From Phoronis australis (taxonomy: Eukaryota; Animalia; Phoronida): a stretch of DNA of 38,896 bases. Positions 3,056 through 38,609 of the stretch are shown here, in pieces. The first letter of the stretch is position 1. Each line of letters starts with the position of its first letter. The stretch lies in assembly GCA_002633005.1 (NCBI GenBank), contig NMRA01001218.1, positions 1 through 38,896 of the forward strand, given 5' to 3'. The notes below the pieces were generated by a model, which saw only the letters and a list, made by a program, of their open reading frames with translations, was not told the origin of the DNA and searched no databases. Both the position numbers and the translations under genes were made by a program.

Positions 3056-3168
3056 ATGTTGCGCAACACATGCGTTCAATTTGTTTGCATTCATTTGTCC
3101 AAGGGCATATATTCAGTAATTGAAACATTTTTGCACCCTAAATGTAAGTCTGGTAGGACGCTGTTCAT

Positions 3169-6100
3169 TACTTGGCGAAATAAATTTCGCCAAGTATGTT
3201 GGTCTTCCATCAAGTTTGGTACTTGGCGGAATTCTTCAGCCAAGTATGTTGGTCTGATAGCAAGATTTTTACTTAGCGAAATGAATTTCGCCAAGTATGT
3301 TGCTCTGTCACTAAGTTTGTTTTTTTGTTTGTTCGCATGATACAGGTCGCAATTTTCGTCCGATCATCACGAAATTTACACATAACACGAACTTCCGGAA
3401 GTACTTTAAGCCTATTGTTTTTCGTCAAAATCGGATCCAAGATGGCGGCTGTGGCGGCCATTTTGTTTTCATTTGGAGGTTCAAATGCGTCTGGAGGCTA
3501 CAATTTTTTACGTAAAAAGCTAAGAATCGGCACAGTAAATGGACCGGAAGTTTGCTATAAGTATACCGGCAATTGTTTACTTCTGGTTAAAGATGGCGGA
3601 AATATCGGCGATCGCGCATGCGCACCTCGATTTTGGCCTAAAAACGCTTCCTCCTGTAGAGGGCGCATTATAAGACCAATTTCTTCGAATTTTTACAAGT
3701 ATTAGTTTCTTATGACATGCTATTATACAAAGCCAAAAAACCGGAAGTTGCTTTCAAGAAGGCGGATCTGGCGCATGTTGGCCCATTTTTAGTCGTGCTG
3801 GTAAATGGGAAGAGAAAAAGACGTGAATTTTTGCATGTGGATTCTTTGAAGTATATTCTTTCAAATGGCCTGTAACAATTTTTTCTCAGACTTACCGTTT
3901 TCGAGTTATTTGACTTTAAATTTCTTAAAAAAAACGCAAAATTTCATTTTTTTCGAAAAATTTACGGAATTAGGCGACACCATCAGTTTAGATAGAATTT
4001 TGAACGGACTTTCAGAAGATGTTTTCCATTTTTTGCTAGGACGTCTACTTGTCGAGATATTTGAGATTTTCTGATATCGCTGTTCCTTTGTTGAGCGCTC
4101 TTGCTGCATTGATGTTGGTTTATCATCTATTGAACTAGACTTAGCCTTTTTCTTACTGATTTCGGAGTTCTACGTTCGTCATGTGTATGTTATTATTACT
4201 TCTTTTGTTCATCCTCGCCACCATCGTCGTCATATTCGTCATCTTCGTCATCATCATTTTTTTTGTTTGTTCGCACTCTACAGGTCGCAATTTTCGTCCG
4301 ATTTTCACGCAATTTGCACATGACGTGTAGAACGGAAAGTCCTGGAAGCCTATTGTTTTTGGTCATGATCGGATACAAAATGGCGGACGTGGCGGCCATT
4401 TTGTATCCGATTTCACAGTCAAATGCTCGTAGAAGCCGCATTTTTCGACACACATGGCTGAAAATCGGTACGATTATACTAGATCGCATGTGCTACAAGT
4501 CTGCCGAAAATCGTTGACTTCTGGTCAAAGATGGCGGAAATATTGGAAGTGGCGCATGTGCACCCCGAAATATGGCCAAAAACGTTTTCTCCTGTAGAGG
4601 GCGCATTTGCAAACCAATCACTTTCAAACTGGTCACGTGTTTGTTGAGTTTAATAAGCTTTTTTAAAAATTATTGAACTGGAAGTCACTTTCAAGATTGC
4701 GGCTGTGGCGCATGTTCACACGGTTTCAATCGCTCTGGTGTCGCATTTTTAACGGCAAGAGCAAATGACGTGAATTTTTGCATGTGGATTCCTTGAAGTA
4801 TGGCCTTTCAAAATGTCTGCGAGATCGTATTTCTCAGACTTACCGTTTTCGAGTTATTTGACTTTGAATTTCAAAAAAATCTGCAAATTTTCAATTTTTT
4901 CGATAATTTTTTTGATTTTTGACAAACTACCACTTTAGATAGAATTTTGAACGGGCTTTCAGATGATATTTTCCATTTTGCGCTACGACGTCTACTCTTT
5001 GAATTATTCGAGATTTTCTGATACCGTTTTTCCTTCGGTCACCTAAGCAAGCACGCAGCTGGCTGGCTTTCAGTTCACTTTGTTTTGGCTATGCCTAGTT
5101 GACCCCGGCTGACCCAGCCAGCACTCTCAAACTGTAGACTGGAATCCCAGGCAAAATACTTATTGTAAACATAACTTTGCTCTGCAGACTGTCACATAGC
5201 GCCATTTATTTTGGAATGTGGGAACAAAGCATGGCTCGTCCGTCATGTTGCGCCATCTATTGTTCTTTATTGTAGTTGATTGTATGCTCTCTATTTGATT
5301 TCTTCGCTAGTCACATGAATGTTATCGTGTTATTCATAATTGCCGCCCTTGATCGTCATGATTGTCGTCGTCCTCCTCATCGTCGTCTTTTCGATTAATT
5401 CCGCCAAGTGTCACTCCTCCGAGCGCTCTCGTTCTTTTGTTTGTTTGCACGATACAGGTCGCAATTTTCGTCCGATCATCACGAAATTTACACATAACAC
5501 GCAGTTCCGGAAGTACTGGAAGCCTATTAATTTTCGTCAAAATTGGATCCAAGATGGCGGCTGTGGCGGCCATTTTGTTTTCATTTAAAGGTTCAAATGC
5601 TTCTGGAGTCTACAATTTTTTACGTAAAAGGCTAAGAATCAGCACAGTAAATGGACCGGAAGTTTGCTACAAGTATACCGGAAATTGTTTACTTCCGGTT
5701 AAAGATGGCGGAAATATCGGCGATCGCGCATGCGCACCTCGATTTTGGCCTAAAAACGTTTTCTCCTGTAGAGGGCGCATTATCAGACCAATTCCTTCGA
5801 ATTTTTACAGGTATTACTTTCTTATGACATGCTATTATACAAAGCCGAAAAACCGGAAGTTGCTTTCAAGATGGCGGATCTGGTGCATGTTGACTCATTT
5901 TCAGTCGTGCTGGAGTGCGATTTTAAACAGGAAGAGAAAAAGACGTGATTTTTTGCATGTGGATTCTTTGAAGTATATTCTTTGAAATGTTCTGTAACAT
6001 TTTTTCTCTCAAACTTACTGTTTTCGAGTTATTTGACTTTGAATTTCTTAAAAAAAAACACAGAATTTCATTTTTTTCGAAATATTTACGGAATTAGGCG

Positions 6101-8770
6101 ATACCATCAATTTAGATAGAATTTTGAATGGGCTTTGAGAAGATGTTTTCCATTTTTCGCTAGGACATCTGCTTTTCGAGTTATTTGAGATTTTCTGATA
6201 ACGCTGTTCCTTTGTTGAGCGCTCTTGCTGCATTGATGTTGGTTTATCTTCTATTGAACTAGACTGTAGCCTATTTCTTAATTGATTTATGATATCTAAG
6301 TTCGTCATATGAATGTTGTGATGTTGTTCATCATCGCCACCACCATCATCATATTCGTCATCATCGTCATCATATTCGTCATCATCTCCGTCGTTAATTT
6401 CGCCAAGTGTCGCTCAAGACTGTAGCCTTTTTGTTACTGATTTCGGACTTCTACGTTGGTCATGTGTATGTTATTATTACTTCTTTTGTTCATCCTCGCC
6501 ACCATCATCGTCATATTCGTCATCTTCGTCATCATCTTTATCGTCATCTTTTTGGTTAATTTCGCCAAGTTTCGCTCCTTGGAGTGCTTTCATTTTTTTG
6601 TTTGTTCGCACTCTACAGGTCGCAATTTTCGTCCGATTTTCACGAAATTTGCTCACAACGTGTAGATCGGGAAGTACTGGAACGCTATTGTTTTTTGTCA
6701 TGATTGGATACAAAATGGCGGACGTGGCGGCAATTTTGTATCTGATTTCACAGTCAAATGCCCGTAGAGGCCGCATGTTGCGAAGTACAAGGCGGAAAAT
6801 CGGTACGATTATACTATAACACATATTCTACAAGTGTGCAGAAAATCGTTGACTTCCTGTCAAAGATGGCGGAAATATTGGAAGTGGCGCATGCGCACCC
6901 CGAAATATGGCCAAAAACGTTTTCTCTTGTAGAGGGCGCATTTGCAAACCAAACAAATGACGTGAATTTTTGCATGTGGATTCCTTTAAGTATGGCCTTT
7001 CAAAAAGTCTGCGAGAGCGTATTTCTCAGACTTACCGTTTTCTAGTTATTTGACTTACAATTTTAAAAAACCGGGCAAGTTTTTAATTTTTTCGAATTTT
7101 TTTTTTTGATTTTTGCCAAACTATCACTTTAGATAGAGATTTGAACGGGCTTCCAGAAAATATGGTCCATTTTGTGCTACAACGTCTACTTTTTGAATTA
7201 TTCGAGATTTTCGGATACCGTTGTCCATTCGGTCACCTATGCAAGCACGCAGCTTGCTGGCTTTCAGTTCACTTTGTTTTGGTTATGCCTAGTTGACCGC
7301 GACTGACCCAAGCAGCACTGTCCTACTGTAGACTGGAATTCCACGCCAAATATTGTAAACATATTTTTGCTCTGCAGACTGTCACATAGCGCCACCTATT
7401 TTGGAATGTGGGAACAAAGCATGACTCATCCGTCATGTTGCGCCATCTATTGTTCTTTATTGTAGTTGATTGTATGCTCTCTATTTGATTTCTTGGCTAG
7501 TCATATGAATGTTATCGTGTTATTCATAATTGCTGCCTTGATCGTCATGATTGTCGTCGTCCTCCCCATCGTCGTCTTTTTGATTAATTCCGCCAAGTGT
7601 CACTTCTCTGAGCACTCATTTTTTTTTATTTGTTCGCACTCTACAGGTCGCATTTTTTGACCGATTTTCACTAAAGTTGTACACAACTTGTATCTCTGGA
7701 AGTAATGGAAGCCTATTGTTTTTCGTCATAATCGGATCCAAGATGGCGGATAAGGTGGCCATTTTGTTTTCATTTAAAGGTTCAAATGCTTCTGGAGGCT
7801 ACAATTTTTTACGTACAACAGAATTATTGGACAGGAAATGTGCTACAAGTATACCGGAAATTGTTTACTTCCGATTAAAGATGGCGGTAATATCGGCGAT
7901 CGCGCGTGCGCACCTCGATTTTGGCTTATAAACGTTTTCTTCTGTAGAGGGCGCATCATAGAGAGCCATTTCCTTCGAATTTTTGCAGGTGTTAGTTTTT
8001 TTGACATGCTATTACACAAAGCCAAAAAACCGGAAGTTGCTTTCAAGATGGCGGATCTGGCGCATGTTGACCCATTTTCGGTCGTGCTGGAGTGCCATTT
8101 TAAATGGGAAGAGAAAGAGACGTGATTTTTTGCATGTAGATTCTTTGAAGTATACTCTTTCAAATGACCTGTAGCAATTTTTTCTCACACTTTCCGTTTT
8201 CGAGTTATTTCACTTTGAATTTCTTAAAAAAAACACAAATTTTTTTTAAAAAAATTTACGGAAGTAGGCGATACCATCAGTTTAGATAGAGTTTTAAACT
8301 GGCTTTCAGAAGTTGTTTTCTATTTTTCGCTAGGACGTCTACTTTTTGAATTATTCGAGATTTCTGATAGCGCTGTTCCTTTTTTGAGCGCTCTTACCGC
8401 ATTGATGTTGGTTTAGTTTCTATTGAACAAGAGTGTAGCCTATTTCTTGCTGATGTATGACTTCTAACTGCTTCATATAAATGTTATGATGTTGCTCAGC
8501 ATTATCACCATCGTCATCATATTCGTTATCTTCGTCATCATCTCCGTCGTAGTTTTTTCAGTCAATTTCGCCAAGTGTCGTTCAAGACTGTAGCCTATAC
8601 TTACTGATGTCTGGCTTCTACGTTCGTCTTTTGAATGTTATCATTACTTGAATTGTTCATCATCGCCACCATCATCATCATATTCGTCCTCTTCGTCATC
8701 ATCTCTATCGTCGTGTTTTCTGTTAAGTTCGCCAAGTGTCGCTCCTCGGAGCACTTTCATTTTTTTAGTT
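3169..8770 (-). mobile_element. Tandem array of non-autonomous Helentron/HINE (DINE-1-like) units, five ~0.9-1.2-kb units alternating A-B-A-B-A
   Basis: Unit marker 'gtttgttcgca..tacaggtcgcaattttcgtccgat' at ~3327, 4265, 5442, 6600, 7630. Triplicated hairpin TACTTGGCGAA..TTCGCCAAGTA at 3169-3297; (CAAA)n-like and (TCA/TCG)n microsatellites; opposite end has hairpin gtgctccgaggagcgacac next to cttggcgaa; T-rich flanks, no TSD. Confidence 0.7.
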
Positions 8771-9207
8771 ATTTATTATCATTGATAAACAAGTACAAAA
8801 TAAACAAGTACATCCATTCATTCAATCATGCACACCTCAGGAGAGAACATTCTCGTATCTCGTATAAAGTAAACAACTGTGACATGGAGTTAACGTGTTC
8901 ATTAAAATTCTCCATTTTCCCATACACAATTAATTTTTTAGCATTATTGTTCTTTTAAGTATAATTGTTACAAACTTGTGAACATTAGGTATACTTTTGT
9001 GATGCTGATCATGTTGTGAAACCTTGAAACTATAAAATCGTATAGAGGACCGTTCAAAATTATGCATTAAAACGTTTTACTTTTTAATGATTGGTTTGTG
9101 AGGTACACAAGTGAAACGCCTCTTTTCTGTTTTAATGGGCCTTTAAATGTGCTGTGGGGTTTTATACGCAAGACACATCACAAATTTAAAGTAGTAATAT
9201 GCCTTAG

Positions 9208-12029: not shown

Positions 12030-12332
12030 AAGTCTGTGATCATCAACAAATCTATACATTTCTATGCAGTAACAGCAAAACAGACCCCAACAATGGATTA
12101 CACCTCTCCCTGACCAGCAGCTACGCCGTGACACCTGTACAGCTTGCAGTCACTTTAAACAAGCAGTTCCTCTTTATGAAGTCTCTGATTAGTCCTATCT
12201 GAGACTCCACAAGTCATTTCAATAGAATAACAGCAGGACAAACCCCAACAATAGGTTACACCTCTCCCCAACTCCCCATGAATATCAGCCAGGTGACACC
12301 TTGACTGGTTGCGGTCTGTTTAAAGACACAAT
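12030..12332. repeat. Diverged ~158-bp tandem repeat, with a third partial copy at ~13790
   Basis: aacagca..acanaccccaacaat.g.ttacacctctccc at ~12071 and ~12229; 'gattacacctaatccccc' at ~13798. Confidence 0.55.
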
Positions 12333-13744
12333 CACGGGTGAGAAACAACTTGACCGCCGGTACTCTTAAATCGGACGGACTCACCCAAAACAGGACCTCC
12401 AGGGATCAAATGGGACTGTCGCACCAGAAAATGGGACTGACGCACCTAAAAACATAACCGCCCCACCAGAAAACAGGACCGCCGGGGACTGAACATGACC
12501 GCCGGGGATTGAAACCGCAGTGACAAACAAGTTAAGATTTATTACTGGTAAGCCTACTCAGATCATACAATGGAGCTATGTACGTATGCATAGGCAGGTC
12601 TTGTGCTGATTAATCCAACGAAATCTTTCGTGCACTACAGGACACTTCGCTTTGTAACACGCGGCGCTTTTGAGTTTTAACCACAAACCAACCACGTTGC
12701 ACGCTTTTGAGCTAAATAATTATAACGATATCCACTGTAAGTTTTACAACAAAATGAAAATCGTTTTCTCCAATTTTACATTTTAGTCAAGAAAAAATGG
12801 GCATTTTGGTTCTCGATTGAAGCATCATAACTAGCCTTTGTGCGGCAAAGCAGTATACTAAATATACAGCTTGGCGCCGATGTGGGTAAAACACTGAACA
12901 TATAAAATCTTCATCGAATTAGTGTTATTAACGACACTCTTCCTTGAGTAAACTAAATTATTTATCGGCGCTCGCCGGGAAAAATTGTCGTTCTGTCATT
13001 ATTCTGCTGCTAAAATTGAGATGCGTTCTTTTAGGTTGGCTTACATTGACCAGTTCCTTAATTTTTTCACCCTTCAGTCAGCTCCTCTCTTCTTCTACGG
13101 GGTTGCGTACATGGCACAGCAAATTATCGGAACTGGTTTCATTTTGTCATAAGTTTTTAGTATTTTAATACCAGCAAATCAAATTTCAGAACAAATCGTG
13201 CTGCTGCGAAGTTGAGTCATCATCTTCCAAAAGATGTCGCAATATTTTAGGACGTGTCGTGTGCTCATGTGACGAGCGTGACAGACTTTTTTGTTACATT
13301 AGGCAAACAAATGACGTTCATTAGATTGTTTTTCATTCAAGCGGCTGCAACCTGCAAGGTGAGTGTTGATTGACTCCTAGATCTTGCATGCGCCTGCTCC
13401 GCTCGCTAGCTTCACGACGAGGTGACGAGCAGAACTATACCCGGGCTGTGGGATGTAACGGAGCTCAATAACGCAGTGCTACCAAGCTTTATTTTGGCGA
13501 GTCTTTACACAGATAGCTGACCGGTTACACAATTACACGTATTATACAAAGACATTGATAACTACGTATTGTCCGGCAGTCATGTTCAGTCCCCGGCGGT
13601 CCTGTTTTCTGGTGGGGCGGTCATGTTTTTAGGTGCATCAGTCCCATTATCTGGTGCGACGGTCTCATTTGATCCCTGGAGGTCCTGTTTTGGGTGAGTC
13701 AACCCGATTTAGAGGACCGGCGGTCATGTTGTTTCTCACCCGTG
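12333..13744. mobile_element. Non-autonomous TIR transposon with CAC...GTG ends and 5-bp TSD (Transib/RAG-like signature)
   Basis: ~175-bp TIRs starting CACGGGTGAGAAACAAC and ending GTTGTTTCTCACCCGTG, built of ~20-21-bp sub-repeats; exact TSD ACAAT at 12328-12332 and 13745-13749; no recognisable ORF. Confidence 0.85.
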
Positions 13745-15470
13745 ACAATCCTTAACTGAAATTTGCACTGCATCCCAATGTGCAGTCACAAGCAAAAGAT
13801 TACACCTAATCCCCCACCATTAACAATGTTTACCGGAGCCCCTTGTCATAGACATTGTACATGGGTTCTCAAAATCGCGGAAAAGCGCATCTTTTCCAGA
13901 TACGAAAAGGGTTTTAAAAAACATATATGGGTCATTTAGAATGAAATCGCGAGTTGGGTATCCCTTTTAGAAAGCTTAACAGATGAGGATTTTTTAATTT
14001 TTCGGTTTCCTCATTGGACCCAAATTTTAATTTGGAAGGAGGCCAACTGGTAGTTTTGTTGCAGACAGTTATTTTTCAATTTACTTTTGATTCGATAATT
14101 GACATGCGTTTCCATTATAAATTTAAGCCGGCAGTATCTATTACGCTGATGAACGACCATGTGCAACATACGGTCGTTGGAAAAGACTTGACTTAGCATT
14201 GATTTTGTGTCCCAACACTAAATAAAGAATAATGTTCTACTCAGTCACATTCACTGTCTGTTTAACTCAAACATATTTTATTCCTCTATTACACATATTT
14301 GGTCAACTACACACATCCCCTTTCGAAATGGTTGGTATTTTTTAAATGATGAACTAAGCGAATAGTTAGTTTTAGGCAATGCATTTGCAGTTTTTGATTG
14401 ACTAGCTGGTGCCTTTGAGACTGACATGTCTCTAGCTCTAAGCACTCTCAACTGAAACACGGTTGAGAATAGTCAATTAACTCAGGTCGTTAAGTACAGC
14501 ATACATTCTTTTATTTTTTCGCTTGACACTTGCAATTTCGGCCAATGAACACCACTATTCTCAATGAATTCATTAAACACGAAAGGGTCAACATACTTGC
14601 CCAAATCTGTTCTGTGCAAAGACCATGTGGACAGCTCGTGGCGAGATAGCCTTCACCCGGCTGATTTCATTAAAACAAAAAGAATTTTCGCTTACTCGGT
14701 AAGGCCGCACTGTTAGAGCTCGTTAGTAGTTTAGTAGTCGATTACCCTTTTATGACATGTGTTGAAATTCAGTGAATTAAATTGAGCATTTTCAGTGAAA
14801 GCACACTTTTTGGACAAAAGCGATAGTGGAATTTGTGATGCCTTGATGCAAGTTTTTATTCACTTGGTGGATTACAGTGGCCAGTGGTGGTTTACCATTA
14901 TTTAGACAATGTAACGTAAGCATACTCATGACATAAAATTACTTTTGAGTTAGTGGCAAGCTTGGGTGCTCGATTGGAAAGAAGAATCTCTGGAATCAAA
15001 TCCCAATGAGACTTGCATTACTTCACAAAGAGGGTTTAACTTATTAAATTAAACCATTAATTGTCCATAGCAGCAGTCAGTGTTGTGAGTTGTTGACTAC
15101 AAAATAGTGGTTTCACAAGTTTGTCCAAATCTTGTTTATGGTAACTCAGTTTTTTGACTCAAGAGCTTCCAGTTTACCCAGCAGTTAGGTGTTGATACAA
15201 TGCAATACAATATTGCAACTTTCTGATACAATCAAACATGCTACTTACTGAATTACTTTGCTAGAATCCCAAACCAGATGATTTGCATTAGAATTATGTC
15301 ACAGTTTTTTCGAGGGGGGGTAGGAGGTCACCAGATAAGAGCTGGGTTCTATTCTCTGCGCATACTTTCATAAGACCACAATCTTCACTTCCTGAGCTTC
15401 CACCTTCAACTGTGCAAGATACTTACCTTGCATGATGCAGTCTTGCTGTCCCATTCTTGAGTTACAGTTA

Positions 15471-22863: not shown

Positions 22864-23181
22864 CATGGGCGGATCCAGGTGTTTGAGTTGGGGGGGGGGG
22901 GGGGGGGGGGGGNNNNNNNNNNNNNNNNNCCCAGCCGAAAATGTAGGGATGCAGGGGTCTCGAATTTTTTGAGTTTGTGGACCTTATTACTAAAAAAACA
23001 AAAAAAAGTGACTGAGATTTGTTCAAGGCCTATGCATTGTGCATTCGCCCCCCCACCCGAGCCCCCCCTGGGTGCGCGCATATACTAGTCAGCAATTCGC
23101 ACCCCGAACTGCCCAATGGTATCTAGGAGATTTTTAGGGCGGCTATGCCCCCCTTGACCTCCCTCCCTAAATCCGCCACTG
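22864..23181. mobile_element. MITE of the same family as 19885-19978, opposite orientation; contains poly-G and a 17-N gap
   Basis: CATGGGCGGATCCAGG..GAGTTGGGG start, TAAATCCGCCACTG end; flanks gttac/gtgac. Confidence 0.7.
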
Positions 23182-26121: not shown

Positions 26122-26300
26122 GCAAACAGCTTGTCCCATCAGCACGCCATGTTTTTGGTCACATCACGTGACCTAATCAATATCAATCCAAAAAGATTTC
26201 TGCCCGTCCCTGTCTAGGGCAGAAATCTTTTCGGACATACATTCATTAGGTCACGTGATGTGACCAAAAAGATGGCGTGCTGACGGGACAAACTGTTCGC
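26122..26300. repeat. Fold-back palindrome (two ~83-bp arms, 11-nt loop), probably a hairpin MITE
   Basis: The left arm gcaaacagcttgtcccatcagcacgccat..aagatttctgccc pairs with the right arm gggcagaaatctt..atggcgtgctgacgggacaaactgttcgc with few mismatches. Confidence 0.9.
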
Positions 26301-29634: not shown

Positions 29635-32452
29635 CTAAACCACTCATTCTGAAAGTACAGATGATGAAGGAGGGTTTAAATACAATTTGACTCACTTTAC
29701 CAGGAGCAATCACAAGATTTAAGAATGTACTTTCAGTCAATTTGTTACACCTTTATGCTTAAAACAACTTTGATTTAATTACCAGAAGGCAAAATTTGTA
29801 GCTGAGACAAAATTATTCTAAACTGACAGCGACTTAAGAGACTTATAATTGATGAAAATTCCGGCTTACGTTAAAGCCCATAGCCTAATCTCTGTATTCG
29901 ATACACAACTCGAAAATTTAACAATTCCATGACATGAGCAAACATAAGATTTGTACTCCAATCACGTGATTTGACTGGCTAATTTTTTGAGGTTGTGAGT
30001 TCCAGTAATGTACCTCGACCATGCAGATTGCAATTAACCATTTTCTCCTAACCTGCACAGTCTAAGATGGAAATACAGAGAAAAGTGGCCATCAATAACT
30101 GAATAAGTTTAGCACACCTATTCTTTCTTTTAAAACTTAATGGAATAAGAAAGATCAACTTACGGTTACACGGGCCCCTGTAGGTGGTCAGTATTCTCCT
30201 AACTGGAAAAAATAAAGCAAATAAGACATTCTCAAGTATATCCATCTTGACCAAGACTTATCCCCCCCCACTGTACTCGGTACGACAAACACTGATATGA
30301 GCTTTCTAATAAAGCTATTGGCGTGGCCAAGTGAAGTCCCTAACACATCCTACAAACATCTCCCCTCTCCCACCACAATTATTTACACCACCTGCCACAT
30401 TGTTCTGCTAGTTAAAATTGATCTAAAAGCCCTTTTGTACTTAATTTTGGTCTGAGCAGAGTGTCGACATAAACTCGAAAGTTAATCGAACCGTTTTTAC
30501 CGGCTTTGGATGTCTAAGTAAACTGTAGCTGATGATGTTGTCATCAAAGTAATCTAAACGTAGTGCAGATGCAACACTGTTACACCAGGATTTTTTAATG
30601 TGATAATTTGGGAACATTGACATGTGCTAATGGACACAAAAACCTATTTCTAATTCGATTAGTGACTACTCCAGCAAATATGAGCAGCTTTTAGCGACAA
30701 CATTACCCTGTAATTGTCGATGATAGCAGTGGCCCCTGACAATAACTTCTTCGATGTAACCGAAGTTAATCATTCATACTACCGTACACCACAGCATCGA
30801 CGCTCCGCTTGTCTACTGTGAAGTCAACTGGCACAGTTAACTTCGATTCAGGACCGTAGTTAACCCTCCATACTGACTGCAACTCCCCAAAACATCGCCA
30901 TGTCGACGTTAGAATAAAAGGGCCTTACCTGTTTTAACTACATGTTAAAACACTAACATGGTGTAACTAGTCCGGGTCAGCGTGAATCAGTACTACTACT
31001 AGTACTAGTAGTATTAGAACAAAAACTGAACAGCTGATCGAATTGTAGCCAGCCAGCTAGCTGTATGATGACTGTATATATATACAGCTTTGTAAAAAGG
31101 CTAATCGAATTGAGGCTCTTCAAAATGATTCGGGTCCGATGTATGCTGACTGAGATCAGTCACCCATCAGTGATTGCTCTAAACGTGTATACGAGTCATT
31201 GAACATTTCACAAACAGCACACTTACTGACTTATACTTGTCCATCGAAAGTCTGGTATTGTTCATTTGTTGTAATGTAAAACCTTCACGAGTTCGAACAT
31301 TCAGTCTTGTCCTCATTGTTTCTCACCTATCGAACGAGTCGATTACAGGTACAAGGTTTGTTGGTAATTCCGCTTTTTGTACTGGCTAACACGTCTTTCT
31401 GAATCTCGTAGAGCAGGATGACTGCGTTTCGCCTTCGAACGTACACTTCGTAGATCTACTTCTCCCCGCCATTTGTATAAATTCTGTTGACCTCTAGATC
31501 TGTGGCTGCGCATGTGTTGTTGTAATGTTTGTAATCTGTTTAGCAGTCGGGATACTAAATTCTTTGTAAACATTTCATTCGTTTGTAGTATTTACGATTT
31601 TTTTCAAACTTTTTGCACAAGTTGAAAGTTAATAACTTTTTTAATTCCATGTCACATAAAAAACCGGCTTAAACGGCGTTAAGAGGTTTTTTCTTCTATA
31701 ACTCGGACCATAGGCCTTTAACGGCACTAATGACTGATATAATCTTGAGCTGGTGATTCAAACGGAGTCGAGTTGCCCACAAAAGTGATCAATTGTAGCG
31801 CTGCATCCGAGGGATCTGTTCCGATTCTGAAAAAGGCAATTTATTTTAAAATGACTGATCACGAAGGTGCTGAATATGATCAGCATTCTTGCTTTCTAAT
31901 ACAACATAACATTAAGTTAATGAATGTAAAGAACCTTACGAAATCCCCAATTTCTTTATCGTTTTTATGGTTGCGACCCGCTGTATGTAGTGAGCCACTG
32001 CACCGCAGTATTAGCATTGCAATCGGCCTCATTGCATAGGGTCCTATCAGATGTTCACCGTACTATAAGCTGACCTCAAGTCTGAAATGACGAGCTGAGA
32101 GTTTACCCATTTCCCTAATGAGAGTGGGGTGTTTTCTAATTGTCAGAGGCTGAACTATGTTGATAAATAAGCTTAATGAGCTATTTATTATAACATATTT
32201 CTTTTTCAGAAACATTTTAATCCCATGGCTGTTGTTAAATACGTCGCTGCATTAGAAATGTTGAGTAGTCACACTTTTGCAGTAACTTGATGATGAAGAA
32301 ATCTTAGCTACTGTCATATTAACTCATGTACTTAATGACTGATATGTTTGATTTAATGTTTTAGGAGATTGTTAATGTGAATGGTGTGGATGTATTATGG
32401 CAAGATATTGTACTTATTAATAATTGATATGACATTGTATTTGCTGTTGTAG

Positions 32453-32530
32453 TGATATACAGTGTTGCACCTGTGGTGAAAATGTTAAATTGGCCATAAC
32501 GGATCGCATTGGAGGGTGGGATGAAGAGAG
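32453..32530 (+). CDS. Putative symmetric (phase 2-2) 78-nt ROCO exon
   Basis: ttgtatttgctgttgtAG acceptor, AG|GTATGT donor, open frame DIQCCTCGENVKLAITDRIGGWDEE(R), in phase with 33558. Confidence 0.5.
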
Positions 32531-33557
32531 GTATGTCTCATTCAGTATCGAGTGTAAAAGAAATCCGAATTGATGGTCCAGCAGAGTAGAGCTATCTTGA
32601 TGAAAAACAATGTGATGAAAAATGGAAAATCAAACAGCACTTAAGCATCTTTTTGGTAATATTCAAGTATTTAAAAAGACACTTTCGTAGCCCTGGCTGT
32701 TCTCATTCGACACTTGTTGAGGCGAATGATTTGAATGTCAACTTTTTTGCTTATAACATGGCTGTGGTTGACATGTATTTTTAGTGAAGATATTTAGTTT
32801 TGATAATCGTGTAGTCGTGTACTATATGTATTTGGCAATGCTATGTTGAACTGTCGGTCAGCCATTTAAATTTGTCAGAATATATTGATTACAACTAGTA
32901 ATAGCATGTCTTCCTCCTAAGCTCATTTTAGAAAATACCACCATTGGACAATTAACAATTTGCTCATACTGTCTATAGTATGTGGGTCTGTTAGTAATGT
33001 GCTCTGTCATAGCAAACTGCTTCAGCAGTATGTGTCAGTGCGCACAAAATGTATTGTCAACTGGTCCATGTATCTCTGTGGTGATACTATCTACAATAAA
33101 AACATCTCCACAATGACATTGATACACATAATTATTTAGGTGTCATTGTGATGAAGCTGTGCCTGTATGCAAATGTGGGCTCATTCTGCATACCACGATG
33201 TGTAAAAACCCTGGCTTATATAATGAGTAAAATGAAAGTGCTTATTTTAAAAATAACGTGAGAATGAAACTTTATTGCTTTGAAACCAGTAAACGGTGTC
33301 GAGTTTTGAATGGAGGTGTTAACTACGAATGAATAGATGATGCATATACAGAATGAGATATGCATGTGTACAATGAAATGGAAAACTTACACCCATGTGC
33401 TTATGTGTGAAATATGTAAGCAAAATATAGTTTCTGAAAAAAAAAAGAAATACAGTTATGGCACATGGTTCTAATTACTCGACTGTGCAGGAGAACATTA
33501 TTTTATAATTGTCTTTTCAATGTATTGCGAATAAATTGATTTTATTTTATTTTACAG

Positions 33558-36500
33558 GGGAGCGTTGTTTGGACCTGAAGCATTAAAATGCTTGTCAGCT
33601 GTGGGCAACTCAAGTCAAGATCAAGAACTGTTACAGAAATTGGGAATTTGCCAAGAGCTGCGCTTGAGTTTGTTGAACTTAAAGAGCAAGGAGGTTCCTG
33701 GAGGACTGACTCTTTGTCAAAGTTTAGTGAACCTTGATATGTCATGTAATGAACTGACTTCTATTCCAGATGGCATTTTTTCGCTGTCGCATCTAGAATC
33801 ATTGAATTTGTCTCTCAACAGGCTTACAGAAATACCTTCTGACATAAAAGCACTGGCAGAATTGAAAGATGTTAACCTGTCTCACAATCAGAAATTAAGA
33901 GACATTACTTCAGTCTGTCAATGTATCAAACTGCGAAGGTTAGTGGTACATGACAACCAGTTAGTGAATATTCCAGTTGAAATAGTGAATATCATAGAGC
34001 TGGAGGAGATTGATTTATCAAATAATCATATCAGAGACTTTGATTCACTGGTTACTTGTGCCAAACTGAGAAAGGTATTATTATGGGTTAACAAGTTGGG
34101 GATTATTCCAGCTGAAGTAGGGAAGCTGAGTGAATTGGAAGAGATTGATTTATCAAATAATCAGATCAGAGACTTTGATTCACTGGTAACTTGTGCCAAA
34201 CTGAGAAAGGTATTATTACGGGGTAACAAGTTGAGGAGTATTCCAGCTGAAGTAGGGAAGCTGAGTGAATTGGAAGAGATTGATTTGTCATGTAATAAGA
34301 TCAGAGACTTTGATTCACTGGTTACGTGTGCCAAACTGAGAAAGGTATCATTACACTCTAACACGTTGGCGAGTATTCCAGCCGAAGTAGGGAAGCTGAG
34401 TGAATTGGAGGAGATTGATTTGTCAAATAATCAGATCAGAGACTTTGATTCACTGGTTACTTGTGCCAAACTGAGAAAGGTATTATTACGGGGTAACAAG
34501 TTGGGGAGTATTCCAGCTGAAGTAGGGAAGCTGAGTGAATTGGAGGAGATTGATTTGTCAAATAATCAGATCAGAGACTTTGATTCACAGGTAACTTGTG
34601 CCAAAGTGAGAAAGGTATTATTACGGGGTAACAAGTTGAGGAGTATTCCAGCTGAAGTAGGGAAGCTGAGTGAATTGGACGAGATTGATTTATCATGTAA
34701 TAAGATCAGAGACTTTGATTCACTGGTTACTTTTGCCAAAGTGAGAAAGGTATCATTACATCATAACAAGTTGGCGAGTATTCCAGCCGAAGTAGGGAAG
34801 CTGAGTGAATTGGAAGAGATTGATTTATCAGATAATCAGATCAGAGACTTTGATTCACTGGTAACTTGTGCCAAACTGAGAAAGGTATTATTATGGGGTA
34901 ACAAGTTGGGGAGTATTGCAGCCGAAGTAGGGAAGCTGAGTGAATTGGAAGACATTGATTTATCAGATAATCAGATCAGAGAGTTTGATTCACTGGTTAT
35001 TTGTGCCAAACTGAGAAAGGTATTATTACAGGGTAACAAGTTGGGGAGTATTCCAGCCGAAGTAGGGAAGCTGAGTGAATTGGAAGAGATTGATTTATCA
35101 GATAATCAGATCAGAGACTTTGATTCACTGGTAACTTGTGCCAAACTGAGAAAGGTATTATTATGGGGTAACAAGTTGGGGAGTATTGCAGCCGAAGTAG
35201 GGAAGCTGAGTGAATTGGAAGACATTGATTTATCAGATAATCAGATCAGAGAGTTTGATTCACTGGTTATTTGTGCCAAACTGAGAAAGGTATTATTACA
35301 GGGTAACAAGTTGGGGAGTATTCCAGCCGAAGTAGGGAAGCTGAGTGAATTGGAAGAGATTGATTTATCAGATAATCAGATCAGAGACTTTGATTCACTG
35401 GTAACTTGTGCCAAACTGAGAAAGGTATTATTACGGGGTAACAAGTTGGGGAGTATTCCAGCCGAAGTAGGGAAGCTGAGTGAATTGGAAGAGATTGATT
35501 TATCAGATAATCAGATCAGCGACTTTGATTCACTGGTTACTTGTGCCAAACTGAGAAAGGTATTATTACGGGTTAACAACTTGGGGAGTATTCCAGCTGA
35601 AGCAGGGAAGCTGAGTGAATTGGAAGAGATTAATTTATCAGATAATCATATCAGAAAGTTTGATTCACTGGTTACTTGTGCCAAACTGAGAGAGGTGATA
35701 CTGTCGTGTAATCTGATCAAAGTTATTCCACCCAGTATTGGAAATATGAAGCAGCTTGAGAACCTTGACCTATCCAATGATGAGATGAGAGGATTTCCTC
35801 GGTTGCCGTATAATTTCCTTGATGAAACTGATGATACATGCAATGACATCTGTAGCCTCCCAGATGAAGTATGCCAGTTAAAGAAACTAAGATTTCTTGA
35901 CTTGCAGAACAATTCATTACATCAACTTCCAATCCACATTGATCATTGTGATTCTCTCCAGTTGTTGTGTCTTGATGGTAACCCTTTAACAAGGCCACCT
36001 TTGGAAGTATGCGAAAGTGGTGTAAAGGCCATATTCCAGTATTTCATGGATCTGCGACAAAGTGAAAGCAGGGTCAGAAAACAGCAGGTGGTCTTCCTGG
36101 GAGAGACCGGAGCTGGTAAAACTAGCTTGGCTAGAACATTGGTAAACAATCAGTCATCTTTAGCTGATCCTGCGGACCGCACTCGTGTCCTTGATCGATA
36201 CGTTTTGAAAGTAAGCAATGATTTACAATTACAGATTACGGACTTTGGTGGCCACCATGTCTATGAGTTGGCTCATACATTCTTTTTGACGTCGGAAGTA
36301 ATTGCTTCATTAGTTGTGGATTTGTCGCGGTATGATGACGACAACTACATGAATTTCGCGGGTCGGTGGCTGGGTACATTAATGGCCATGTCGTGGAAGT
36401 CTACTGTGATTGTTGTTGGAACTCACAGTGACTGTTGTGCTGAAGAAGAGATTGAGAGAAAGAAGAAGGACTTGTTAGGTCGCATCAAAGATCAACATCG

Positions 36501-37804
36501 CAGGATGATCTCTGATGTTGAAGCGCAACGGGGAAGAATCATCTTGACAATGAACCAGTATGATGACAAAACAAAGTTCCATGGTTACGTTCGATACCTT
36601 GAAGACATTCGCAAGAGCAAGGAAAGGCACTTGGAATCACTGCGGTCCAACTTCAATTTAATTGACGACATCTTTGTGACGAGTTCGCATTCTCTGCATG
36701 GTATTCCAGAATTCAAGTCTCAACTACTTACAGTTTGTGACAAAAAGGCAGCAACATTGCCTGGTTTATGGCTGGCAATACAAGACATCATGGATGGGCA
36801 GAGTGATGAACCCTGCATAGAGCTCGAGAAATTCTATGAAATTGTGCGTCGGGGTTTCACTGTTCGTGAGTTGCCTACAGATGATATTCAGCACACTGCT
36901 GCAGTGTTACTTTCGTATCAACATCAGTGTGGAAATTACTTATGGTTTGAAGATGATGAGCAGCTTAAAGCGCATATCTTCCATCGACCTGATTTTGTTG
37001 TTGAGTTTTTGAAAGGTATTTTTCATCATAACATGGATAGTCAACTGGATCAGAGTAATCAAGATTTTGACTTCACAACTTTCACCAACAAAGGTTTCAA
37101 GAAAGCAAAAGAGGATTTCTTGAAGTGTGGTCTCATTTCAACGGATCTTCTGCGGTGTCTCTTGAAGCGACATGTGAGCGTCGAATCTTTGTTTGACACT
37201 TTGTTACATCTCCTGGAAAAATTCTGTCTATGTTTCCCTGTTCGCAAAATAGACCATGGCAGCATTCTTTGCTTTCCATGGTTCCTTGCCAATGACCAGC
37301 CTGATGAGATGAAAGTGAAGTGGCCAAAGAAGCCAAGCAAACATCAGTACCAAATCGAGTTTCATTTTTCAAGGCAGTGTCCTGAAGCTTTCTTTGAGCT
37401 GGCCATTGTTAGGGTGCATCAGTGCTTTGGACCATTTTTGCGGGATGTTGTGACATGGAAAAATGGTGTTTACTTCCACAAAGGTCACGACAAGATAAGG
37501 ATGTCCAAAGTATGTGTTAATGACGATGTCATTCTACGACTTGCAGTGCGGGGTGAACAAGTTACTAAGTCGTTGTGGCCTAGTTTGATGAAAGCATACC
37601 ACGCAGTTGTTGGTCTTTTAGTAAGTAAGTGGCCGGGAGCTTCGTATGACATCTTCTATGTTTGTCCTCATTGTCTATGCTGTGAAGTTGCTGAACCTAC
37701 TTTGTATCCAGCACATGATCTGCAAAACTTTCTGTTTGGTGAAGAATTCCTACCATGTGACAACAGTGATGAAGGGGTTCTAAAAGTGGATGAGGTTGTA
37801 CCAG
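33558..37804 (+). CDS. ROCO protein (LRR-Roc-COR), MFHAS1/MASL1-like; giant internal exon
   Basis: Acceptor tttattttattttacAG at 33557, donor CAG|GTAATA at 37805. More than 30 LRRs; linker GNPLTRPPLEVCESGVKAIFQY; P-loop GETGAGKTS (36100); DFGGH (36241); THSD (36421); helical insertion in Roc; COR motifs (HQCGNYLWF, FPWFL, WKNGV); CPHC. Confidence 0.95.
33994..35697 (+). repeat. Coding tandem array, ~12.6 x 135 bp (45 aa = one 22-aa plus one 23-aa LRR)
   Basis: Unit starts at 33994, 34129, 34264, 34399, 34534, 34669, 34804, 34939, 35074, 35209, 35344, 35479, 35614; consensus SELEEIDLSxNxIRDFDSLVTCAKLRKVxLxxNxLxSIPAEVGKL. Confidence 0.98.
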
Positions 37805-38538
37805 GTAATACACTAATAAAGTCACTATTCATCAAGTTATCTAGTAAATGAAGAACTGACTTTGAAGTGTGTGTACAGAAAAAATATGGCCATCTGTTGC
37901 GATAAGGTCGGAGGACTTTAATTGGGTGATTTAGAGCACCAATTCTAAGTGTCTTGACGATTCTATCTCAAAGTGGATGTAATTTCTGTGCTTGGAAAGA
38001 CCTTAGAATTCTGGAGTTGGCTTGTCATGAAAGGCCATTATATTTGCCAAATTATATTGTCAAGGAAAAGTGAGCTGTCATTATATCCAAGTATAGAGGA
38101 TCCTGATGAGTCTGTTTCATGAAAAGTGGCTTAAATAATTTGTACAAATTTTCACTGTAAGCAAAAGTTATGGATATAACACGAGTGTTAAGTATATTTT
38201 ATAAATAGTTATGTTGAGCATGAGACCAAATTTCTGTCTTAAATCATTTTTCATAAAACAGATCTTAGTAGTATGGTTGAAATCAAAAGTTTAGTTTTAA
38301 TCAAGTTGCTAAACTGTCAAGCAGTAAGATTTGGGCCGAGGACTTACACAAAACATTTTTTCTGTGACTTGTATGTGACCTTTGAGAAGTTCCAAATTCT
38401 CCCTCTTAATTCTCTAGTTTTAATAATTTAGTGAAGGTCATGAAGTTGTAAATATCTTGTAGCCTGTTTAAGAAATTAAACGCGTGTATCGACAAATTTA
38501 AATATGACCATGTACATAAGGTTTTAATTTGTGTTTAG

Positions 38539-38609
38539 GTTCCTTTTCTGTACCAACTGAAGGACAGCTGTTTGAGGCACAGAAAGGTTTTGACATTTGT
38601 CAGCGAAAG
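38539..38609 (+). CDS. Next ROCO exon (C-terminal region; gene probably continues)
   Basis: ttttaatttgtgtttAG acceptor, phase 1 matching 37804, (G)SFSVPTEGQLFEAQKGFDICQRK, donor AAG|GTAAGA. Confidence 0.8.

Follow-up and report, generated by a model that had tools for sequence, protein, structure and literature searches.

The stretch analysed here, called the window, comprises 38,896 nucleotides of the phoronid Phoronis australis (assembly GCA_002633005.1, contig NMRA01001218.1, positions 1 to 38,896 of the forward strand). Its main feature is a gene of the ROCO family in which a tandem array of near-identical leucine-rich repeats (LRRs) precedes a Roc GTPase and a COR domain. A stop-free frame on the plus strand (33535-37851) contains the array and gave Pfam matches to LRR, Roc, COR-A, and COR-B (Table 1). 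Within Roc, the motifs G1 (GETGAGKT, 36100), G3 (DFGG, 36241), and G4 (GTHSD, 36418) are clear, while DRT and TSS (36679) are candidates for G2 and G5, respectively. COR lies directly 3' of Roc and the LRR domain is N-terminal, which is the order of group-1 ROCOs (LRR-Roc-COR). With these motifs and both COR matches, the ROCO identity assigned in a first-pass annotation of the stretch is borne out. None of the Pfam matches of the window protein was a NACHT or NB-ARC STAND ATPase; its NTPase is Roc. The gene is predicted to be, as far as the window reaches, an LRR-Roc-COR gene without a kinase.

The 12 full 135-bp units of the assembled array appear to lie in one exon, as had been annotated. 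The frame is open across this exon, from a predicted acceptor (33557/8, AG at 33556-33557) to a read-supported donor (37804/5, GT at 37805), at which loose read ends match the next exon (read sets X6, X7, and X1). Upstream, a three-frame reading of 31080-31420 did not reveal a clear start codon. The gene continues past the window end, so its C-terminal domain is unseen. A second ROCO or LRR piece was not found elsewhere in the window, since none of 668 tblastn hits fell outside the large exon. On the minus strand at about 30150-31000, donor-like sites in the sequence alone suggest the first exons of a divergent gene, which would have its promoter region in common with the ROCO gene.

Table 1. 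Features of the ROCO gene in the window.
Feature	Position	Strand	Evidence and remarks
Candidate upstream coding exon	32453..32530	+	78 nt, phase 2-2; sequence prediction only
Large coding exon (LRRs, array, Roc, COR)	33558..37804	+	4247 nt; open frame 33535-37851
Four degenerate LRRs 5' of the array	33724..33999	+	Sequence
Twelve 135-nt units, two LRRs each (22+23 aa)	34000..35619	+	93.0% mean pairwise DNA identity
Unit 3, type B (C-N-K / S-L-H-S / A)	34270..34404	+	Type A/B differences
Unit 6, type B (C-N-K / S-L-H-H / A), mosaic	34675..34809	+	Variant in common with the type-A neighbour unit 5
Exact doublet duplication, units 7-8 = units 9-10	34810..35349	+	388 nt exact match, lag 270, from 34776
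13th unit (degenerate), more LRRs, and cap, then Roc	35620..36050	+	Sequence and predicted structure
Roc GTPase	36088..36687	+	Pfam Roc, 1.9e-11
COR-A	36760-37260	+	Pfam, 1.7e-8; 34.9 bits, slightly below the 35.3 cut-off
COR-B	37345-37779	+	Pfam, 8.1e-7
Next coding exon, GSFSVPTEGQLFEAQKGFDICQRK	38539..38609	+	In frame with the large exon; loose read ends match

Tandem Repeats Finder reported the array as 12.6 copies of a 135-nt period with 93% matches (34001-35696). In the first LRR of a unit the variable positions are 8 and 10; in the second they are 5, 7, 8, 10, and 12. The units fall into a major type A (ten units) and a minor type B (units 3 and 6), which are separated by eight fixed nucleotide differences, all of them in codons that differ in the encoded amino acid. 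Seven of the eight lie in codons of the exposed (x) positions, set from the consensus LxxLxLxxNxL as positions 2, 3, 5, 7, 8, and 10, that is, 12 codons per unit. The alternatives given in the first-pass annotation, DLS[N/C/D]N[H/Q/K] and V[L/S]L[W/R/H/Q][V/G/S/H]N[K/T/N]L[G/R/A], and its series of di-residues (WV, RG, HS, RG, RG, HH, WG, QG, WG, QG, RG, RV) were reproduced exactly in the twelve units. The likening of this series to the repeat-variable di-residues (RVDs) of TALE proteins stood only in part: the series is correct, but it largely reflects two unit types together with R>W and R>Q at a single CpG site. The homogenised, near-identical array is a real feature of the gene.

The array bears several traces of reshuffling. 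Besides the exact doublet duplication and the mosaic unit (Table 1), units 1-3 resemble units 4-6, and the four-gamete test was failed by 20 of 105 informative site pairs (13 of 66 when CpG sites were left out). Such block duplications and mosaicism are signs of unequal crossover and/or conversion between neighbours, as had been proposed, and the homogenisation and reshuffling of units are well supported. The perfect doublet represents either a recent duplication or a duplication in the assembly.

Reads were mapped to positions 35562-37870 from four of eight listed runs. Two raw RNA runs of 2026 yielded 158 and 192 mapped reads. The first mate lay on the minus strand in nearly all cases, and in most stranded libraries this indicates sense RNA; the reads thus confirm that the gene is transcribed in sense orientation. 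Reads going back one period occurred in all four runs, and in the raw-read runs the depth on one period exceeded that of the unique part about 7-fold and 11-fold, which shows that the tandem array is real. Both observations stand against an array that is partly an assembly artefact, with its length and the perfect doublet expanded or chimeric from paralogues. Such an artefact might arise because the 388-nt exact repeat is longer than short reads, the scaffold has N gaps, and near-identical paralogue types exist. However, the frame is intact across the 12 units, array-bearing relatives carry 4-22 units, and an artefact would alter the unit count at most, not the phenomenon; we regard it as very improbable.

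The read data contained further sequence types. X1 and X2 contained pieces identical to the window together with others that differed from it at 31 and 44-45 sites over approximately 280-410 nt. The expressed sequence types number at least three and are read here as paralogues, or possibly as divergent alleles. X1 had been guessed to be DNA, but carries the spliced end and is therefore probably RNA-derived. X2, listed as probable DNA, shows a pattern of pieces like that of X1 and is likely transcriptome data. Translated reads and contigs also revealed di-residues that are absent from the assembly (QH, RH, HD, HE, HY, and HR), mostly on units of the S-L-H type.

Changes among the units were counted by conservative parsimony, which yields small numbers from units that undergo conversion and are not independent. 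Eighteen of 29 non-synonymous changes fell on the 12 x codons, which hold 27% of the non-synonymous sites (p = 6e-5), and seven synonymous changes were counted overall. When ties were resolved arbitrarily, parsimony yielded 20 and 5 in place of 18 and 7; the conservative count was adopted. For all units, the ratio of non-synonymous to synonymous rates (dN/dS, omega) was about 3.0 at x codons (p = 0.007) and 0.67 at non-x codons. Hence, the variation is concentrated at the exposed residues named in the first-pass annotation, but not confined to them, with 11 of the 29 changes located elsewhere.

An AlphaFold model (790 residues, 18-row alignment) with a predicted local distance difference test score (pLDDT) of 88 displayed a regular solenoid with a strand at LRR positions 3-5. 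Position 5 is thus placed on the strand and positions 7, 8, and 10 in the loop right after it. The variable residues, which had been expected on or beside the binding face, are accordingly found on or just after the predicted beta-strand. From knowledge of LRR structures and from PMC3341825, it follows that the variable positions would lie on the usual binding side of LRRs. A fold search with the model matched only generic LRR solenoids (GSO1, LRRD1, FLS2, and SHOC2), which are uninformative on the ligand.

A search with Roc-COR as the query matched 2219 representatives at E values up to 0.001, and the analysis used the best 150 of them. Thirty proteins were looked up by name. The nearest named ones were Lingula proteins with approximately 30-34% identity in Roc-COR, mostly annotated as "MFHAS1 homolog"; the named ones as a whole came from Lingula, Branchiostoma, Owenia, and molluscs, and one cluster included Oculina. 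The nearest named relatives are thus brachiopod, mollusc, annelid, amphioxus, and coral proteins, in agreement with the animal context assumed before. Homogenised arrays of 46-47-residue LRR pairs were present in 14 of the best 150, including amphioxus and brachiopod proteins. In a set of 183 proteins, which was enriched by a search seeded with an array-bearing ROCO, 30 passed the array threshold (the window gene, 28 LRR arrays, and one non-LRR repeat). Positions 5, 7, 8, and 10 were more variable than the remaining positions in 27 of 27 arrays, comprising the window gene and 26 of the 28 LRR arrays (P0067 and P0167 were left out), with a mean diversity of 0.37-0.61 versus 0.03-0.25 elsewhere; these positions were chosen after P0001-P0003 had been seen, and many arrays are close kin. 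Compared with polar positions on the convex side, the difference was significant in eight of ten arrays (p < 0.05; 0.05 and 0.064 in the other two), and the window gene displayed a diversity of 0.10 at the polar convex-side positions versus 0.37 at positions 5, 7, 8, and 10. The related array-bearing ROCOs P0003, P0155, and P0156 probably form a tandem cluster; their variation at positions 5, 7, and 8 is far richer than that of the window gene.

In a tree of 177 out of 194 matches, array-bearing proteins appeared at six places, with some array-less sisters being fragments. For 25 rows picked from this tree, six changes were needed to account for the arrays, and a single origin, with all array-bearing ROCOs in one clade, was rejected (approximately unbiased test, p-AU 1.5e-59). 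The window protein (P0001) had no supported neighbour in the 25-row tree. Orthology to MFHAS1 was neither supported nor contradicted: no well-supported set holds P0001, and the 30 proteins looked up included none named as a vertebrate MFHAS1. Twelve relatives were scanned for effector domains, and CARD, Death, caspase, OTU, or GT4-conflict domains were detected in eight (after COR in seven, before the LRRs in one). In the Branchiostoma proteins P0028, P0037, P0061, and P0047, a homogenised LRR array with Roc-COR is fused to a GT4-conflict glycosyltransferase, an OTU protease, or a caspase.

The pattern of variation might also result from neutral concerted evolution, in which an LRR pair was expanded by slippage or unequal crossover, the framework is kept by purifying selection, the x positions are tolerant, and CpG decay mimics a code, with neither diversifying selection nor a special immune role involved. 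The majority unit has only two CpGs, in codons 29 and 38, and these rank with its most variable sites; the changes CGG>TGG and CGG>CAG (R>W and R>Q) are transitions at CpG and fit such decay. Over the whole unit, pN/pS (the non-synonymous to synonymous ratio) was 0.96, which is also compatible with neutrality. However, the x-codon omega was 3.15 once CpG transitions had been dropped, which rules out CpG decay as the sole cause and leaves it as a contributor. The location of seven of the eight fixed A/B differences in x codons, the much lower variability of the polar convex-side positions, and the non-CpG di-residues added by the reads likewise argue against neutrality, which we consider rather unlikely.

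Several observations nevertheless weigh against a rapidly diversifying sensor. The elevated dN/dS anticipated in the first-pass annotation applies to all units taken together, but the ten type-A units alone gave an omega of 1.65 (p = 0.28) and a non-significant concentration at x codons (p = 0.1), as neutrality would have it; the x-codon excess is therefore carried mainly by the contrast between types A and B. The underlying numbers are small parsimony counts on converting units that are not independent. Only 10 of the 158 and 8 of the 192 raw RNA reads were at least 99% alike to the window gene, so most of the signal originates from other copies or alleles. Among the best 150 representatives, 136 are without such an array at the threshold used, some of them being fragments. 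Finally, the tests on homologues are based on proteins only, which does not allow positive selection to be told apart from relaxed constraint. On balance, diversifying selection at the x positions is moderately supported.

Group-1 ROCOs, which include vertebrate MFHAS1/MASL1 and the invertebrate "MFHAS1 homolog" proteins, are similar to the window gene in domain order and Roc motifs. Homogenised LRR arrays as in the window gene are not mentioned for MFHAS1 in the accessible parts of PMC6337361 and PMC4104024. The LRR-ROCOs of brown algae are multi-copy, show sites under selection on the concave side of their LRRs, and are proposed to act in immunity (Zambounis 2012, PMC3341825; Teng 2024, PMC11378527); a multi-copy LRR-Roc-COR architecture and variable LRR sites are shared with the window gene. 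In these algae, including Ectocarpus, every LRR is encoded by its own 72-nt exon, which is shuffled and alternatively spliced (PMC4104024), whereas a two-LRR unit of 135 nt is repeated inside one exon of the window gene. Prokaryotic AP-GTPase-COR counter-invader proteins combine rapidly evolving N-terminal LRRs, Roc-COR, and C-terminal effectors of varying kind, GT4 and caspase among them (Kaur 2021, PMC8195603). This layout is mirrored by the amphioxus relatives; those systems are, however, bacterial and predicted only, whereas the window gene is spliced and animal-like.

The fungal HNWD NLRs (het-d, het-e) possess units that are 80-100% identical with few hypervariable positions, evolve in concert by unequal crossover, and originated repeatedly and independently; high-identity hypervariable repeats are noted for animal ATPase proteins, too (PMC13449251). 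The mean DNA identity of the window units falls within this range. Fungal NLRs contain WD40, ANK, or TPR repeats, a NACHT or NB-ARC ATPase, and an N-terminal effector, in contrast to the LRRs and Roc-COR GTPase of the window gene and the C-terminal effectors of its relatives. Function and length polymorphism have been demonstrated for the fungal NLRs, whereas the window gene is known here from sequence and short reads. Since the evolutionary signature resembles that of the HNWD allorecognition genes (PMC13449251) and relatives carry death-fold and caspase effectors, diversifying recognition might be directed at something other than pathogens, as in allorecognition or in gamete or selfish-element conflict (cf. 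the fungal het genes). This appears improbable: the GTPase is intracellular, its Pfam matches include no membrane segment, and the family is multi-copy rather than a single locus; moreover, nothing links the window gene to gametes or fusion.

Nucleotide-driven changes of the dimer are relayed among LRR, Roc, and COR in a bacterial Roco (PMC6337361), TIR-ROCO fusions are present in Aplysia (PMC9334734), and human MFHAS1 is involved in TLR2 and macrophage signalling (PMC4658032, PMC5520684). VLR-like LRR cassettes were not detected by tblastn in the window outside the large exon, and nothing indicates a TALE-like code. Lamprey VLRs are extracellular and somatically assembled from cassettes, and TALE RVDs follow a DNA code; both resemble the window gene in placing variable residues on a constant repeat scaffold. 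ROCO expansion is already known from Trichoplax. A literature search, outside which lay most subscription papers, Marin's ROCO surveys, and supplements (those of PMC13449251, and its figure 8c, may contain animal examples), found no paper on homogenised hypervariable LRR arrays in animal ROCOs. Each ingredient is already known; what seems new is that a probable diversifying repeat sensor is joined to a ROCO switch in animals, within one exon and recurrently.

Outside the ROCO gene, the window contains several repetitive elements. About five diverged tandem copies of a non-coding element of 0.9-1.2 kb (3100-8800), 65-95% alike and of two alternating subtypes, form a satellite or mobile-element array. 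At 12332-13745, inverted arms of 139 nt with 94% complementarity and no long open reading frame look like a non-autonomous DNA transposon, and a near-perfect palindrome with 84-nt arms at 26122-26300 is probably a miniature inverted-repeat transposable element. Runs of N (assembly gaps) at 688-1426 and 22913-22929 indicate a draft assembly.

The combination of a homogenised LRR arm with a changing predicted binding edge makes a fast-diversifying intracellular non-self sensor likely, and the similar pattern in distant animal relatives points to an immune-type function of the window gene. We lean towards this explanation, with the arm homogenised and the binding-edge residues under probable selection, and consider it somewhat more probable than its alternatives combined. 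Ligand binding, the read-out through Roc-COR, and the immune role are suggested by the architecture and by analogy. Unequal crossover and gene conversion would keep the LRR arm near-identical, while selection would keep changing the residues of the predicted binding edge. This edge may bind a variable ligand, either a pathogen product or modified self, and binding could shift the nucleotide or dimer state of Roc-COR. Such a shift might then activate a death-fold or enzymatic effector, located at the C-terminus or in a partner, as the architectures of the relatives suggest. New specificities would arise when whole 135-nt units are added, dropped, or converted in the germ line, and CpG decay would supply part of the point variation.

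To our knowledge, work on animal ROCOs has been limited almost entirely to four genes of vertebrates (LRRK1, LRRK2, DAPK1, and MFHAS1). We tentatively propose, as a possibility still open to considerable doubt, that invertebrates have a second, GTPase-based NLR-like class: multi-copy LRR-Roc-COR proteins of at least six separate origins, with CARD, Death, caspase, or GT4 effectors, in which homogenised and reshuffled intra-exonic two-LRR units would give new specificities. It is an open question how invertebrates, lacking adaptive immunity, produce diverse intracellular receptors, and the genomes of amphioxus, brachiopods, and Phoronis permit a direct study of unit polymorphism and unit swaps. 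If the arrays are specificity modules, ROCOs would form a class of receptors that parallels the NLRs and has been overlooked, and a testable sensing role in animals would be added to the LRR-to-Roc-COR switch of LRRK2-family proteins.
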